From Geotalea uraniireducens Rf4 (lineage in GTDB: Bacteria; Desulfobacterota; Desulfuromonadia; Geobacterales; Geobacteraceae): 32,000 bases of DNA. The position numbers and the translations under genes were made by a program. The notes below the pieces were generated by a model that saw nothing but the letters and a program-made list of their open reading frames with translations, did no database searches and was not told where the DNA came from. Location: NCBI RefSeq assembly GCF_000016745.1, contig NC_009483.1, positions 4,380,001 to 4,412,000 of the forward strand, given 5' to 3'. Shown here one piece after another: positions 2,233 through 31,009 of this stretch; the first letter of the stretch is position 1; each line of letters begins with the position of its first letter.

Positions 2233-2255
2233 TTCTACGTTCTACGTTCTACGTT
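2233..2255. repeat. Heptanucleotide tandem repeat (TTCTACG)x3 plus a partial unit. On the transcribed minus strand it reads CGTAGAA.
   Basis: Direct reading of 2233-2253 gives three perfect 7-nt units. The array lies in the 69-nt spacer between the histidine kinase stop (2280) and the response regulator start (2210). Confidence 0.9.
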
Positions 2256-10621: not shown

Positions 10622-12154
10622 ATGCAAAGCGCACCCTTCATTCTTCCCGATGATGACCACAACAGAACCCTGGTTGACAACGTCCACCCCGGTAACTGGA
10701 CAAATCCTGCTCCTGCCGAGCGTTACAACCTTGTGGTTATCGGCGCAGGCACTGCCGGGCTCGTCACTGCCGCCGGCGCCGCCGGCCTCGGGGCAAAGGT
10801 AGCCCTCATCGAGCGACACCTCCTGGGAGGTGACTGCCTCAATTACGGCTGCGTCCCCTCCAAAGGAATCATCCGTGCCGCCCGGGCTATCCATGACGTG
10901 CGAACCGCCCATGAATTCGGTGTGGACGGGGGAGAAAGTCTCCCTATAGATTTTACGGCCGCCATGAAGCGGATGCGGCGAATAAGGAGCGAGATTAGTC
11001 CCCACGACTCGGCCCGGCGCTTCCGGGACGAGCTGGGGATCGACGTCTTCTTCGGCGCGGGAAGCTTTACCGGCTCCGACTCCGTCGAGGTCGGAGGAAA
11101 ACTGCTGCGCTTTAAAAAGGCGGCCATTTGCACCGGGGCGAGGGCTGCCGCCCCTCCCATTCCGGGGATCGTTGAAGCGGGCTACCTCACCAACGAAACG
11201 GTCTTCTCCCTCACCGAACTGCCGCAGAGGCTCGCCGTCATCGGCGGCGGCCCCATCGGCTGCGAGATGGCCCAGACCTTTGCCCGGCTGGGGAGCAAGG
11301 TGACCGTCCTGGAATACTCAGACCACCTCCTTTCCCGGGAAGACGCCGACGCTGCGGAAATCGTGCAGAATGCCCTGATGGATGACGGGGTTGAGCTCTG
11401 CCTGCGAGCCAGCATCCTGGCTGTCGCAAGACGCGACAACGACAAGATCATCACCGTCGAGCAGGATGGAAAAGGGATGGAGCTGGCGTTCGACGAGATC
11501 CTGGTCGGTATCGGCCGGGCTCCCAACATGGAGGGGCTGAATCTGGAGGCGGCAGGGGTTGCCTACGACCCTAAAGTGGGAGTAACGGTGAACGAGCGGC
11601 TCCAGAGCACCAACCCGCGGATCTTTGCCGCCGGCGACATCTGTTTCCCTTACAAGTTCACCCACTCCGCCGACGCCCTGGCACGCATCCTGATCGCCAA
11701 CGCGCTATTCATGGGACGGCAGAAGACATCTGCCCTCACCATCCCATGGTGCACTTATACCGAACCGGAGATCGCCCACGTGGGGATGTACGAGCGGGAG
11801 GCCCGGGAAAAGGGGATCGAGGTGACGACCCTGACCGTGCCACTCAGCGAGGTGGACCGGGCGCTCCTCGACGGAGAGTCGGAGGGGTTTGCCCGGGTGC
11901 ACCTGAGAAAGGGGACCGACCGGATTCTCGGCGCAACCATCGTCGCCCGCCATGCCGGCGAGATGATTAATGAGATGTCGCTGGCCATGACCGCCGGCCT
12001 CGGCCTCTCAGCTGTCGGCAAAACCATTCATCCCTACCCCACCCAGGCGGAGGCGATCAAGAAGCTCGCCGATGCCTATAACCGCACCCGGCTCACCCCA
12101 TTCGTGAAGAAAATCCTCAGCGTCTGGTTGAAATGGCAGAGAAAAACGCAATGA
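10622..12154 (+). CDS. FAD-dependent pyridine nucleotide-disulfide oxidoreductase (mercuric reductase / dihydrolipoamide dehydrogenase-like class I)
   Basis: 510 aa. It has the FAD-binding motif VVIGAGTAGL and the redox-active disulfide GGDCLNYGCVPSK. It also has an NAD-binding GGGPIGCE and a C-terminal dimerisation-domain HPYPT motif. There is no N-terminal HMA/MerA metal-binding domain. Confidence 0.85.
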   Translation: MQSAPFILPDDDHNRTLVDNVHPGNWTNPAPAERYNLVVIGAGTAGLVTAAGAAGLGAKVALIERHLLGGDCLNYGCVPSKGIIRAARAIHDVRTAHEFGVDGGESLPIDFTAAMKRMRRIRSEISPHDSARRFRDELGIDVFFGAGSFTGSDSVEVGGKLLRFKKAAICTGARAAAPPIPGIVEAGYLTNETVFSLTELPQRLAVIGGGPIGCEMAQTFARLGSKVTVLEYSDHLLSREDADAAEIVQNALMDDGVELCLRASILAVARRDNDKIITVEQDGKGMELAFDEILVGIGRAPNMEGLNLEAAGVAYDPKVGVTVNERLQSTNPRIFAAGDICFPYKFTHSADALARILIANALFMGRQKTSALTIPWCTYTEPEIAHVGMYEREAREKGIEVTTLTVPLSEVDRALLDGESEGFARVHLRKGTDRILGATIVARHAGEMINEMSLAMTAGLGLSAVGKTIHPYPTQAEAIKKLADAYNRTRLTPFVKKILSVWLKWQRKTQ

Positions 12155-12852
12155 ATCGGAAAAAACTCGTTATACTCACAATTGTCGCTGCACTCATCGC
12201 CCTTTTCTTCTACTTCGATCTGGGGAGATATCTGACTCTGGAATCATTAAAGGCCAACCGGCTGACCTTGGTGCGTTTCCACGATACACACAGAGTGGCC
12301 ACGGCAGGGATATTCATGGCGGTTTACATCGTGCAGACCGCCCTCTCCCTTCCCGGCGCAGCCATACTGTCGCTCGCCGCAGGCGCCGTATTCGGAGCGG
12401 CCATGGGGACCATCTATTCCAACATAGCAGCCACCCTCGGCGCCACCCTCGCCTTCCTGGTGGCCAGATATCTTTTCCGCAATTCGATCCAGAGCAAATT
12501 CGGGGTCAGGCTCAGCAAATTGAACACCGAGCTGGAGCAAAGGGGGCTCAACTATCTGCTTTTCCTCCGCCTGGTGCCGGTCTTCCCCTTCTTCCTCATC
12601 AACCTGGGGGCCGGATTGACAAAACTGCCGCTGCGGACTTTTTTCTTCGGCACCATGTTCGGCATTATCCCCGGTGGTTTCGTCTATTGCAACGCCGGGG
12701 CCAGCCTGGCATCCATCAACAGCATGAGGGAAATCGCCTCCCCGCGGGTGCTCGGATCCTTTGCCCTGCTGGGCCTCTTTGCCCTGGTGCCGGTGTTTTA
12801 CCAGAAACTGAAAGCAAGAAAACGGGAATCGGGGATCGGGGATCAGCAATAA
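12151..12852 (+). CDS. TVP38/TMEM64 (DedA-related) family inner-membrane protein
   Basis: A multi-pass membrane protein with the family-typical PGAAILSLAAGAVFG and FLRLVPVFPF segments. The ATG at 12151 overlaps the upstream TGA as ATGA. An alternative start lies at 12133. Confidence 0.8.
   Translation: MNRKKLVILTIVAALIALFFYFDLGRYLTLESLKANRLTLVRFHDTHRVATAGIFMAVYIVQTALSLPGAAILSLAAGAVFGAAMGTIYSNIAATLGATLAFLVARYLFRNSIQSKFGVRLSKLNTELEQRGLNYLLFLRLVPVFPFFLINLGAGLTKLPLRTFFFGTMFGIIPGGFVYCNAGASLASINSMREIASPRVLGSFALLGLFALVPVFYQKLKARKRESGIGDQQ
12824..12844. repeat. Heptanucleotide tandem repeat GGGAATC-GGGGATC-GGGGATC inside the 3' end of the TVP38 gene
   Basis: Direct reading. It encodes the C-terminal ...ESGIGDQQ tail and ends 6 nt before the TAA stop. 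Confidence 0.8.
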
Positions 12853-12864
12853 GATGTGGAACCA

Positions 12865-12892
12865 CCAGTTCCCAGTTCCCAGTTCCCAGTTC
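12865..12892. repeat. Heptanucleotide tandem repeat (CCAGTTC)x4
   Basis: Direct reading shows four perfect units. The array starts 12 nt after the TVP38 stop and ends 18 nt before the preferred start of the radical SAM gene. Confidence 0.92.
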
Positions 12893-16395: not shown

Positions 16396-16430
16396 TACTT
16401 TTTCCTATAAGCCACAACCTGCGTGTCCTC

Positions 16431-16495
16431 CGGGTAAAAAGGACCGAGGATCGAAGAACGAGGTTTTGGTTGTTCTCGGTCCTCGGACCTCGGAC
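16431..16495 (-). terminator. Candidate intrinsic terminator after nadE, built from inverted heptad arrays
   Basis: On the minus strand, GTCCGAG-GTCCGAG-GACCGAG, a 12-nt loop and CTCGTTC-TTCGATC-CTCGGTC form an imperfect ~21-bp hairpin. It is followed by C-TTTTT. Confidence 0.45.
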
Positions 16496-16509
16496 CTCGT
16501 GCCTCGATC
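16442..16509. repeat. Two opposed heptanucleotide arrays. (GAnCGAr)x3 occupies 16442-16462 and (CTCGnnC)x5 occupies 16475-16509.
   Basis: Direct reading. The left units are GACCGAG, GATCGAA and GAACGAG. The right units are CTCGGTC, CTCGGAC, CTCGGAC, CTCGTGC and CTCGATC. The two arms are reverse complements of each other. Confidence 0.85.
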
Positions 16510-16514
16510 CTGCC

Positions 16515-18314: not shown

Positions 18315-18698
18315 TCAGTACGCCAGCTCAAAGGCATCTTTGATGTGCTCAATCTCCGGCACAGCATGATCCCGCTGGAGGATGGCGACAACATCGAACC
18401 GGGCAGGGGCATCCAGAAGCATTTTCTTCGCCAGCCAGGTGAGGGCGGCCTTGGAGATCTGCCGCTGCTTGAAAGGGGTGACGGATGCTTGCGGCGGGCC
18501 GCAGGCTTCATTCCTGCGGGTCTTCACCTCAACAAAGACTATGGTCTTGCCGTCTCTGGCTATAATGTCGACCTCACCACACTTACAACGGAAGTTTCGT
18601 TCAACAATGGCGTATTTCCGCCCTTTCAGATAGCAAACGGCGATCGCCTCACCCTGCTCGCCGAGGCTCTTGTTATCTGCCCTATCCTCACTCCTCAC
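18315..18698 (-). CDS. yraN: YraN-family (UPF0102) endonuclease-like protein
   Basis: 127 aa. The family core is GEQGEAIAVCYLKGRKYAIVERNFRCKCGEVDIIARDGKTIVFVEVKTR. The GTG start at 18698 lies inside the heptad array and overlaps the rnhB TGA. Confidence 0.85.
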   Translation of the reverse strand: MRSEDRADNKSLGEQGEAIAVCYLKGRKYAIVERNFRCKCGEVDIIARDGKTIVFVEVKTRRNEACGPPQASVTPFKQRQISKAALTWLAKKMLLDAPARFDVVAILQRDHAVPEIEHIKDAFELAY

Positions 18699-18712
18699 TC
18701 CTCACTCCTCAC
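18685..18712. repeat. Heptanucleotide tandem repeat (TCCTCAC)x4, which reads (GTGAGGA)x4 on the transcribed minus strand
   Basis: Direct reading shows four perfect units. The rnhB stop (18695-18697) and the yraN GTG start (18696-18698) are both inside the array. Confidence 0.95.
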
Positions 18713-19413: not shown

Positions 19414-19549
19414 CCTTCGCGTTCTTATTCCAATGCCAAATCAAGGCGCTATCTTCGTTGGCTCGTCTTCGGCTCCTCAACGTACTATCTGTACGCTTCG
19501 TCGCCTCACTCCTCGCCGCCTCGATTTCATCCTTGATTTGAAATTGGAA

Positions 19550-19906
19550 TTACATGCCTGCCACGTATTTCTTTTCCTTGATTCGCGATGCCTTACCGCG
19601 CAGCTTGCGCAGATAGTAAAGCTTGGCACGACGGACCTGGCCGCGGGTTATCACCTCGATGGCGTCAACGGACGGCGAGTGGAGGGGGAAACTTCTCTCT
19701 ACGCCGATCCCGTTGGAAATCTTGCGCACAGTGAAGGACTCGCGGATTCCGCCGTTCTGACGGCCGATCACCACACCCTGGAAGACCTGAATACGGCTCT
19801 TGTCACCTTCAACGATCTTCACGTGGACCTTCACCGTATCACCGGGTCTGAACACGGGGATGTTTTTCTTCATCTGCTCCATTTCAATAAAATCGATCTT
19901 GTTCAT
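19550..19906 (-). CDS. rplS: 50S ribosomal protein L19
   Basis: 118 aa, beginning [34 protein letters not shown]... This is a canonical L19. A strong SD (GGGAGGAAG) precedes it. Confidence 0.95.
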
Positions 19907-19993
19907 TTTTTTCTTCCTCCCTTATCTATGCAGCCAGAGCTTTATTTAATATGCAGAATTACCTGTGAATTCTGTTGCCATTCTTCATTTTTT

Positions 19994-20056
19994 CAACCAT
20001 CAACCATCAACCATCAACCATCAACCATCAACCATCAACCATCAACCATCAACCGC
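19994..20056. repeat. Heptanucleotide tandem repeat (CAACCAT)x8 plus one imperfect unit, which reads (ATGGTTG)n on the transcribed minus strand
   Basis: Direct reading shows eight perfect units at 19994-20049, then CAACCGC. The array begins 5 nt after the TAG stop of the upstream gene (20061) and lies ~90 nt upstream of the rplS start. Confidence 0.95.
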
Positions 20057-20060
20057 ATTG

Positions 20061-20642
20061 CTATCGTTCGCCAAGCAGCCGGTCGAGGATGATGGCTGCC
20101 GCCGAGCGGACAGACAGATGGTTATAGGTGCCGCGCCCCTTGATCGGCTCCAGGACGTAATCGGCCCGGTTGAAAATTTCTTCCGTCATTCCCCACCCAG
20201 TACCAAACAGCAGCAGATAGGGCTGAGCTGCATCCCGGAAGAGTTCTCCTAGCTGGGCAGAAGAGATGCTGTTCGCGCGCCCCTGGGCACCGGTGACAAC
20301 AATCTTCGCCCTCTTGCCGTGACTCTTTTCCAGGTCATCAAGAGCCATATCCAGGGAATCGACAACCTGCATAAGCTCAAGGGCCGCCTTGCGCTTGGGA
20401 TTGTAGGTGGCGCCCCAGCCGTCCAGCCAGTGAGACCTGATCCGTTCCGACAGAGTGCGCTGTTCCGCTACCGGCGTTATCACATAGTAGCGATACAGGC
20501 CGAAGGTCTTGGCTGAACGGGCAATGTCGTGCAGGTCGAGATTGGTTACCGCAGTGGCCACGACCTGTTGATTTTTGTCGTATACCGGGTAATGGAGCAG
20601 GGCAATGCTCACATTCGGAGCGGTTGGAAGATTATCCGTCAC
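20061..20642 (-). CDS. Predicted SAM-dependent RNA methyltransferase (SPOUT-like, Methyltrn_RNA_4-type) inserted between trmD and rplS
   Basis: 193 aa. The call rests on my recollection of a family of trmD-linked predicted RNA methyltransferases and on its position, overlapping the trmD 3' end by 11 nt. I cannot verify any diagnostic motif by eye. Confidence 0.45.
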
Positions 20643-30268: not shown

Positions 30269-30995
30269 CGTTTCCCCAACATATGTGTTGCATTTCCGAA
30301 CTGTATCCGCCATCTCCGGCATAGACGATGAGGGGCGGCAGTACCGATAAATCCCCCCTCCGCCCCTTGACCAACTCTACGAGAAACATTCCCGCCCCAG
30401 AGATGTCGTTGCCGTGCACCATACGAAGCCGCAACGGGGCGAGCTTCAGCAGAGCTGCCTCGGCAAAAAGCTCCACCAATCGGGACGGATGATAGATGAA
30501 GCAGATCCTCCCCCCCGGTTTGACCAGGTATTTCGCCGCCGTCAGGAAATCGGTGAGGCATGCGGTAGATTCGTGCCGTGCCTTGTCCCGTCCGGCCCTG
30601 GGGCTCACCCGACCGGTACCGGCTCTGCGGTAGGGGGGATTCGAAACGACCAGGTCAAAGGATGATACGGGAAACACCCCCTTCAAGGAGGTGATATCCG
30701 CGGCCAGAATGGAAATCCTGTCGCCGAGGCCGTTGATACTGACGTTGCGCAAGGCCAAATCCGCCAGCAATGCCTGGAATTCCACCCCGGTAACGGTGAC
30801 ATCCTCCGCCTCCCTGGCCAGGATCAGGGGGATGATGCCGCAGCCGCTCCCGAGGTCAATGGCCCGTTCGCCGGTCCTGATGGCGGCAAAGTCGCACAAA
30901 AGAAGCGGGTCGAGGGAGAATCGGTAGCCGTCCCGCGGCTGGCCAATGCTCAGCCGGTGTCTGCGCAACTCGTCGACGGTTTCTTCACCTTTCAC
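30225..30995 (-). CDS. N6-adenine-type SAM-dependent methyltransferase (TrmN6/YfiC-like)
   Basis: 256 aa. It has the SAM-binding motif IDLGSGCGIIPL and the catalytic NPPY motif (VVSNPPYR). The GTG start at 30995 lies inside a heptad array and overlaps the upstream TGA. Confidence 0.65.
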   Translation of the reverse strand: MKGEETVDELRRHRLSIGQPRDGYRFSLDPLLLCDFAAIRTGERAIDLGSGCGIIPLILAREAEDVTVTGVEFQALLADLALRNVSINGLGDRISILAADITSLKGVFPVSSFDLVVSNPPYRRAGTGRVSPRAGRDKARHESTACLTDFLTAAKYLVKPGGRICFIYHPSRLVELFAEAALLKLAPLRLRMVHGNDISGAGMFLVELVKGRRGDLSVLPPLIVYAGDGGYSSEMQHICWGNDAEQQEDSSCFAGL

Positions 30996-31009
30996 CTTTC
31001 ACCTTTCAC
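30984..31009. repeat. Heptanucleotide tandem repeat (TTCACCT)x3 plus a partial unit, which reads (GTGAAAG)n on the transcribed minus strand
   Basis: Direct reading. The upstream gene's TGA (30992-30994) and the methyltransferase GTG (30993-30995) are both inside the array. Confidence 0.9.

Follow-up and report, generated by a model that had tools for sequence, protein, structure and literature searches.

A heptanucleotide repeat array forms the stop-start junction of rnhB and yraN in Geotalea uraniireducens and leaves both proteins unchanged across its natural copy numbers

Tandem repeats with a unit length that is not a multiple of three are usually regarded as frameshift switches wherever they reach into a coding region. 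Among the long simple sequence repeats (SSRs) of bacteria, heptanucleotides form the most abundant class, with polymerase slippage as the proposed cause (the survey of Mrazek 2007, as cited in PMC4679880 and PMC4692102). Heptamer duplication is seeded where 4-nt repeats at a spacing of 7 nt mispair (bioRxiv 10.1101/2024.05.01.592015), and in Xanthomonas and Nostoc G-rich heptamers of the GGGGATC type have been investigated as repeats that form G-quadruplexes (PMC4692102). Tandem heptanucleotide families of four to five copies in Geobacter metallireducens are annotated as putative global regulatory elements (PMC2700814), and the TAACTGA repeats of marine Beggiatoaceae have been suggested to bind S1, Csp or Csr-type proteins (PMC4679880). 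Already known are abundant heptamer SSRs, conservation of their position with variation in their length, and three-frame-stop heptamers that overlap upstream stop codons (TAACTGA, PMC4679880). Literature searches returned no tandem repeat described as forming a stop-start overlap with a unit that supplies stop, start and Shine-Dalgarno (SD) sequence, and no natural repeat alleles described as leaving both flanking proteins unchanged. The subject here is a heptanucleotide array at the junction of rnhB (RNase HII) and yraN (UPF0102) in Geotalea uraniireducens Rf4. It lies in a stretch of 32,000 nt (NC_009483.1, positions 4,380,001 to 4,412,000), the whole of which is called the window below.

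On the minus strand, the array between rnhB and yraN (Table 1) is a perfect 4.0-copy repeat of period 7 with the unit GTGAGGA (TCCTCAC on the plus strand), on which Tandem Repeats Finder (TRF) and an exact-run scan agree. It is preceded by TAC and followed by TAG, and its wider flanks are GTTAAAGAGTAC upstream and TAGGGCAGATAAC downstream. The array encodes the last five codons of rnhB (VRSEE) and its TGA stop in unit 3 (18697-18695), the C-terminus of RnhB in the window being ...KEYVRSEE. The GTG start of yraN (18698-18696) lies in the same unit, giving a GTGA overlap at 18698-18695, and the first four and a third codons of yraN are derived from the array. The yraN frame is closed upstream by a TGA in unit 2 (18704-18702), and the next canonical in-frame start is codon 58, within the UPF0102 domain. 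Thus, the array GTG is the only viable canonical start of yraN and a start downstream of the array is ruled out; gene callers in other assemblies also chose the array GTG. The predicted SD duplex has an energy of -8.4 kcal/mol with CACCUCCUU, a generic anti-SD (the 16S tail was assumed, since the window has no 16S gene), and this is close to the 5th percentile of window 14-mers (-7.9). The original prediction, that (GTGAGGA)4 between TAC and TAG supplies stop, start and SD together, is therefore confirmed by TRF, the exact-run scan and the open reading frames (ORFs).

No terminator-like site was found at the rnhB-yraN junction itself. A known structured RNA family at the junction is ruled out, as the whole window gave 0 Rfam matches at gathering thresholds. 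When the 4-copy allele and a natural 7-copy allele were folded with 60-nt flanks, their energies were similar and no distinctive structure sequestering the array was seen. A programmed frameshift producing an RnhB-YraN fusion can be ruled out on sequence for the 4-copy allele, because of the TGA of the yraN frame in unit 2; a slippery X XXY YYZ motif is absent between this TGA and the rnhB stop.

The junction was rebuilt in silico with n=0-10 units. All n of at least three give the same RnhB tail (...GVKEYVRSEE*) and the same YraN N-terminus (VRSEDRADNK...), the rnhB stop being the TGA of unit 3 and the yraN start the penultimate GTG. The stop is always in unit 3 because the conserved Val codon of rnhB is the GTG of unit 1, in frame, and the start is always the penultimate GTG because the right flank sets the frame of yraN. 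As 7 = 1 mod 3, successive units offer TGA and GTG in all three frames. The geometry from SD to start is also constant, since one full unit always precedes the start and gives AGGAG 6 nt upstream. What changes with n is the stop-to-start distance, which equals 7(n-4)-4 nt from three copies upwards (-11, -4, +3, +10, +17, +24 and so on), and the count of out-of-frame GTG decoys, each of which opens a five-codon ORF (VRSEE*) closed at the GTGA two units on. The claim that arrays of three or more units keep the rnhB TGA and the yraN GTG in frame agrees with this rebuild. However, two further expectations, that copy-number change would alter a few terminal residues and the SD-start geometry, did not hold; no residue changes at these copy numbers, and it is the stop-to-start distance and the number of decoys that vary instead. 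Two units give an in-frame RnhB-YraN fusion, one unit leaves yraN without a start, and with none rnhB ends at the TAG after the array. No 2-copy (fusing) allele was seen among the natural alleles. The on/off frameshifting of a phase-variable contingency locus is not found here, as both proteins are unchanged for all n of at least three and in all natural alleles.

Within the species, public assemblies were searched for the exact YraN and RnhB proteins, and copy number was then compared at the DNA level. Three lineages (A, B and C) differ in array copies (4, 7 and at least 5, respectively), with both ORFs intact. Lineage A comprises the window, SRR29904084 and SRR9436595, which are 100% identical and have n=4 by sequence; for SRR29904083, n=4 comes from gene coordinates only. 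Lineage B is represented by ERZ27247098, JGI 3300001914 and Ga0209639, which are mutually identical and ~98.5% identical to the window, and has n=7 between flanks identical to those of the window, with yraN placed 17 nt after rnhB by gene callers. SRR5248218 also belongs to lineage B, and its contig breaks inside the array. In lineage C (SRR12113422, 99.8% identical to the window) the contig opens with GA followed by four units; as a 4-copy allele would have AC, not GA, before the first unit, at least five units are inferred. Two Logan contigs (L083 and L084, both positions 1-30) begin exactly 30 nt inside the (GTGAGGA) array. Because graphs break at arrays that exceed the k-mer length, copy numbers in short-read graph assemblies are lower bounds. 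The array has the properties of a microsatellite, with 4.0 perfect copies beyond chance and a copy number that is polymorphic in close relatives between conserved flanks.

Scanning with RnhB gave 80 loci in species-representative genomes, a set without the window's own species, and 80 in metagenomes (loci carry L numbers below). The best matches are a metagenome contig (L086, 86% identity) and a Geobacter sp. metagenome-assembled genome (L001, 82%); the closest named relatives, at ~70-73% RnhB identity, are Geotalea toluenoxydans, Geomobilimonas luticola and Geobacter sp. AOG1. The sister species represented by L086 has (GTGAGGA)4 plus GTGAGGG (n=5), with the stop in unit 3, the start in unit 4 and a distance of +3 nt. 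A GTGA overlap is seen both in G. luticola (L008), with (GTGAAAG)3.7, and in G. toluenoxydans (L006), with GTGAAGA GTGAAGA GTGAAGG GTGAAGG (GTGAAGR x4). In AOG1 (L003), (GTGAAAG)7.6 puts the stop in unit 3, the start in unit 7 and +24 nt between them. The metagenome contig L106 carries (GTGAAGG)4, with downstream ATGs as further possible starts, and degenerate 7-periodic versions with a variable stop-to-start relation occur in L004, L087/88, L001, L096 and L036, from various sources. In this small sample the stop-to-start distances seen in nature are -4, +3, +17 and +24 nt, and only the 4-copy allele, L006 and L008 have the overlap-type coupling layout, with a stop/start overlap and the SD inside the upstream gene. 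The proposal that copy number varies while both ORFs stay intact is thus borne out, with 4, 7 and at least 5 copies within the species and 3.7, 4, 5 and 7.6 between species. In more distant Geobacteraceae no repeat is present, and ...GVKEH(V/C)... is followed by a simple ATGA or GTGA overlap. Neighbour joining on RnhB+YraN groups the array bearers, interspersed with decayed arrays (L001, L096) and with some lineages that lack a repeat, a pattern that fits a putative old origin of the array followed by homogenisation, decay and loss.

A second junction in the window, between a YfhO-like gene and a methyltransferase gene, has the same architecture (Table 1). In unit 3 of its GTGAAAG array the TGA of the YfhO-like gene (30994-30992) overlaps the GTG of the methyltransferase gene (30995-30993) as GTGA, although the latter start is less certain because of an alternative TTG at codon 10. 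Lineage B has 4.7 copies here, and the genes are called at 1-1891 and 1895-2683, 3 nt apart. Degenerate arrays with a GTGA overlap are present at this junction in L008 (G. luticola, ~575-600; GTGAATG GTGAAAG GTGAAGG GTGAGGA) and in L067 (~2836-2866; GTGAGGA GTGAGAC GTGAGGG GTGAGGA), and no heptamer array is found there in AOG1, G. toluenoxydans or L009. Further 4-nt overlaps, at 849/846 and 21375/21372 of the window, have no repeat.

Heptamer arrays are not confined to these two junctions. The window contains five perfect heptamer arrays of at least three copies, where 300 first-order Markov simulations give an expectation of 0.0, and the exact-run scan found no perfect arrays of period 5, 6, 8 or 9. 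All the heptamer arrays of the window, including the imperfect ones that also exist, are in short intergenic stretches or at gene ends. In 80 Geobacteraceae loci (1.27 Mb) nine heptamer arrays of at least three copies were found, all in four genomes of this clade. The arrays are thus many, mostly non-coding and lineage-restricted, with other periods not enriched, as in lineage-wide heptanucleotide long SSRs (LSSRs). Copy number differs between lineages A and B at 5 of 6 comparable arrays (~96.5-98.5% identity over the aligned region). The TGGTTGA array, for example, has 8.9 copies in the window versus ~2.9, with one substitution, in lineage B. Complementary heptamers, CGAGGNC and TCCTCGA, make up the two arms of the hairpin that follows nadE; in the window the 5' arm is expanded (~4 copies), and lineage B has one copy there and an expanded TCCTCGA 3' arm (L081 12208-12238). 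The CCAGTTC array (GAACTGG on the other strand) is single-copy in lineage B, where an adjacent 7-mer, GTGAGTA in the L081 orientation, is present in 3.6 copies (L081 15777-15801). This independent expansion of adjacent 7-mers is direct evidence for de novo heptamer duplication. The CGGGGAT array, in the counterpart of the gene with a VTT domain called in L081, has the same length in lineages A and B, and its 21 nt preserve the frame.

Table 1. Positions of the junction features and of the other heptamer arrays in the window.
Feature	Position	Strand	Remarks
(GTGAGGA)x4 heptanucleotide array bridging rnhB/yraN	18685..18712	-	TRF, exact-run scan; 7 copies between identical flanks in same-species lineage
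rnhB (RNase HII), 216 aa	18695..19345	-	ORF; Pfam PF01351, E=9.4e-41
yraN (UPF0102, predicted nuclease), 127 aa	18315..18698	-	ORF; Pfam PF02021, E=9.1e-30, residues 16-106
GAGGAG Shine-Dalgarno-like element, across unit 1/unit 2 boundary	18705..18710	-	6 nt upstream of yraN GTG
(GTGAAAG)x3.7 array, YfhO-like gene/methyltransferase gene	30984..31009	-	TRF; same architecture as rnhB-yraN
(TGGTTGA)x8.9	19993..20054	-	6 nt past PF09936 methyltransferase stop, in rplS leader
(CGAGGNC)x3.6	16475..16499	-	one arm of terminator-like hairpin after nadE (window 16420-16510)
(CCAGTTC)x4, intergenic	12865..12892	+	
(CGGGGAT)x3.1, imperfect	12823..12844	+	inside 3' end of ORF 12133..12852(+)
(AACGTAG)x3.3, intergenic	2233..2255	-	directly after upstream gene's stop; ~20 nt before ATG at 2210; unit contains TAG

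Several further observations concern these arrays and those of related genomes. Plus-strand ORFs with PSTINHQ repeats (19433..20092 and others) are spurious translations of the TGGTTGA array. CGGGGAT is of the G-rich GGGGATC type, as are AGGGATT x11.3 in L008 and AGGGACT x4.4 in L003. The latter two belong to a third operon junction, between a Se/S-carrier-like and a TusA-like gene, where heptamer arrays are present in L003 (4695-4879), L008 (4831-4909) and L004 (4652-4681). In AOG1 (L003) this is a 185-nt composite of AGGGACT x4.4, ACTAGGA x8 and GGATCAC x15.3, in G. luticola it is AGGGATT x11.3 and in L004 GTGAATG x4.3; the window has only a 27-nt gap between the two genes. The TAG stop of the Se/S-carrier-like gene is inside the array in AOG1, and G. 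luticola appears alike by eye. From the TGA stop of the AOG1 TusA-like gene, upstream of ffh, runs (GTGAAAG)x10.9 (L003 5475-5550), with the same unit as the rnhB-yraN junction of AOG1. An inverted pair of heptamer arrays in L008 (12767-12864; GGGACCA x3.7 and CCGGTCC x4.6) matches the GGACCGG four-repeat family of G. metallireducens (PMC2700814).

The rnhB-yraN array is probably a slippage-prone heptamer microsatellite that grew upon an ancestral GTGA overlap and has been tolerated since both genes are immune to its copy number. GTGAnnnGTGA at an overlap junction is exactly the kind of 4-nt seed, spaced 7 nt apart, that is described above. Copy number would then change by replication slippage, which in this Geobacteraceae clade would be strongly biased towards heptamers and hit many short intergenic sites, and selection would remove alleles of fewer than three copies and arrays whose units lose TGA or GTG. 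The array would persist because its composition shields both genes (7 = 1 mod 3, each unit having TGA, GTG and half an SD), and its purine-rich units would encode harmless hydrophilic tails in all frames. The change in distance may modestly shift YraN output, although adaptive tuning need not be assumed. As hypervariable heptamer arrays are numerous in the lineage, tolerance of a mutational process is more economical than tuning. The difference at 5 of 6 arrays between lineages A and B indicates that heptamers frequently arise by de novo duplication, not that rnhB-yraN has a device of its own. Two observations weigh against this explanation. Perfect arrays are found at the same junction in different genera, with RnhB only ~70% identical, which implies long persistence or repeated regeneration, beyond the usual neutral microsatellite. 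Moreover, unit positions 5-7 take 22 of the 27 deviations from the within-array majority, with GTGA almost always kept (eight imperfect arrays from the rnhB-yraN and 30984-31009 junctions, binomial P about 5e-5), although arrays are recognised by GTGA periodicity in the first place, some units are directly constrained, and variants spread by slippage make the counts non-independent. This retention of GTGA in degenerate arrays hints at selection on every unit, which may be indirect if units are rotated by slippage to where the stop and the start lie.

Such rotation is also how GTGA would be kept in every unit if GTGA-plus-purine heptamer arrays were a selected, reusable intercistronic module of the clade, that is, a heritable and reversible dial of coupling at several junctions. 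This is doubtful; if true, a highly mutable repeat would shift the stop-to-start distance by 7-nt steps and never break either gene. A similarly low probability applies to an adaptive rheostat, in which selection keeps a contingency-type array at rnhB-yraN and the stop-to-start distance and number of decoy GTG/SD elements tune YraN versus RNase HII. Copy number is polymorphic within the species as well as between genera while both ORFs remain intact, the architecture recurs at the second junction, nearly every unit of degenerate arrays retains GTGA, the array has persisted long at its position, and the natural spacers of -4 to +24 nt are all within the distance reported as optimal for coupling, below ~25 nt (PMC7538156). 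However, unrelated heptamers without a stop/start role (in 3' untranslated regions (UTRs), terminator arms and 5' leaders) are equally variable, the SD-to-start geometry is independent of n, rnhB and yraN are housekeeping-type genes without an obvious need for population heterogeneity, and in E. coli re-initiation is reportedly no major route to coupling (PMC7538156). Several independent datasets also share one and the same 7-copy allele, so that the array does not switch extremely fast. Less probable still is an array of binding sites, in which a regulator recognises the heptamers either in the DNA or in the mRNA, which is rich in purines and repeats GGA/AGG motifs, and the coding overlap is secondary. 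The same has been proposed for the G. metallireducens elements (PMC2700814) and Beggiatoaceae TAACTGA (PMC4679880), and GTGAAAG recurs at window 30984 and at L003 5475 and 10625, but units at the same junction differ by species (GTGAGGA, GTGAAAG, GTGAAGR, GTGAAGG), other units in the window are unrelated, the window has no Rfam match at gathering thresholds, and the only common motif, GTGA plus purines, is itself explained by the need for stop, start and SD. A single mobile or regulatory heptamer family, of the GGACCGG or TAACTGA kind, is ruled out here, as units differ between species and sites. Chance or an assembly artefact can be dismissed almost entirely, the one by the Markov simulations, in which zero arrays are expected, and the other by the presence of the array in independent ENA, JGI and Logan assemblies and in several species.

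The natural alleles behave in the opposite way to frameshift switches. Owing to the TGA and GTG in the heptamer, copy number is of no consequence to the two adjacent genes, and the sole thing that shifts, in steps of 7 nt, is the distance between them. This would explain how a lineage prone to heptamer slippage retains tightly packed operons. The alleles also provide a ready natural series (-4, +3, +17 and +24 nt, with SD and proteins constant) for relating stop-start distance to coupling. For annotation it is relevant that in such genomes a repeat contains both the end of the first gene and the start of the second, and that short-read graphs break there.

Among known systems, the arrays resemble heptanucleotide LSSRs (the Mrazek 2007 survey, cyanobacterial short tandemly repeated repetitive (STRR) sequences, and GGGAATC/GGGGATT of Xanthomonas and Nostoc, PMC4692102) in having a 7-nt unit, in being lineage-specific, abundant and mostly intergenic, and in keeping their position in relatives while length and sequence vary; polymerase slippage is the proposed cause. 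However, those LSSRs are described as elements of intergenic DNA or UTRs, of which some form G-quadruplexes, and none is described with a stop, the next start and an SD. The four- and five-copy heptanucleotides of G. metallireducens (Gmet_H4##, PMC2700814) come from the same family and likewise have 7-nt units in about four copies between or within genes, but they are multicopy families with a fixed consensus (GGACCGG at 49 sites; MTYCTGA), whereas the units here vary by site and species. TAACTGA repeats are alike in that forward heptamers give stops in all three frames, and this is all that is shared, the units here being GTGAGGA, GTGAAAG and others. TAACTGA is one fixed unit at ~169 sites and may be mobile; it has no start codon, the start lies outside the repeat and an adjacent SD is mostly not recognisable (PMC4679880). 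Strain-level copy variation with both proteins unchanged is seen in the rnhB-yraN array and is not shown for TAACTGA (PMC4679880).

The 4-copy allele is a textbook GTGA coupling overlap with the SD inside the upstream gene, and repeat-free relatives have ATGA or GTGA at rnhB-yraN; the other alleles differ from coupling overlaps in replacing the overlap with a spacer of +3, +17 or +24 nt made by the repeat. SSR contingency loci, such as the 7-bp repeats upstream of hmw1A in H. influenzae (PMC8262952), are similar in that copies change by slipped-strand events and the repeats are placed to affect expression, and the GGTGCCC heptanucleotide of P. fluorescens pflu0185 (bioRxiv 10.1101/2024.05.01.592015) is similar in that a 4-nt repeat spaced 7 nt seeds the duplication. 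In contingency loci, however, a frameshift or a change in promoter spacing switches or grades the gene, whereas the rnhB-yraN array insulates both frames from a repeat whose unit is not a multiple of three.

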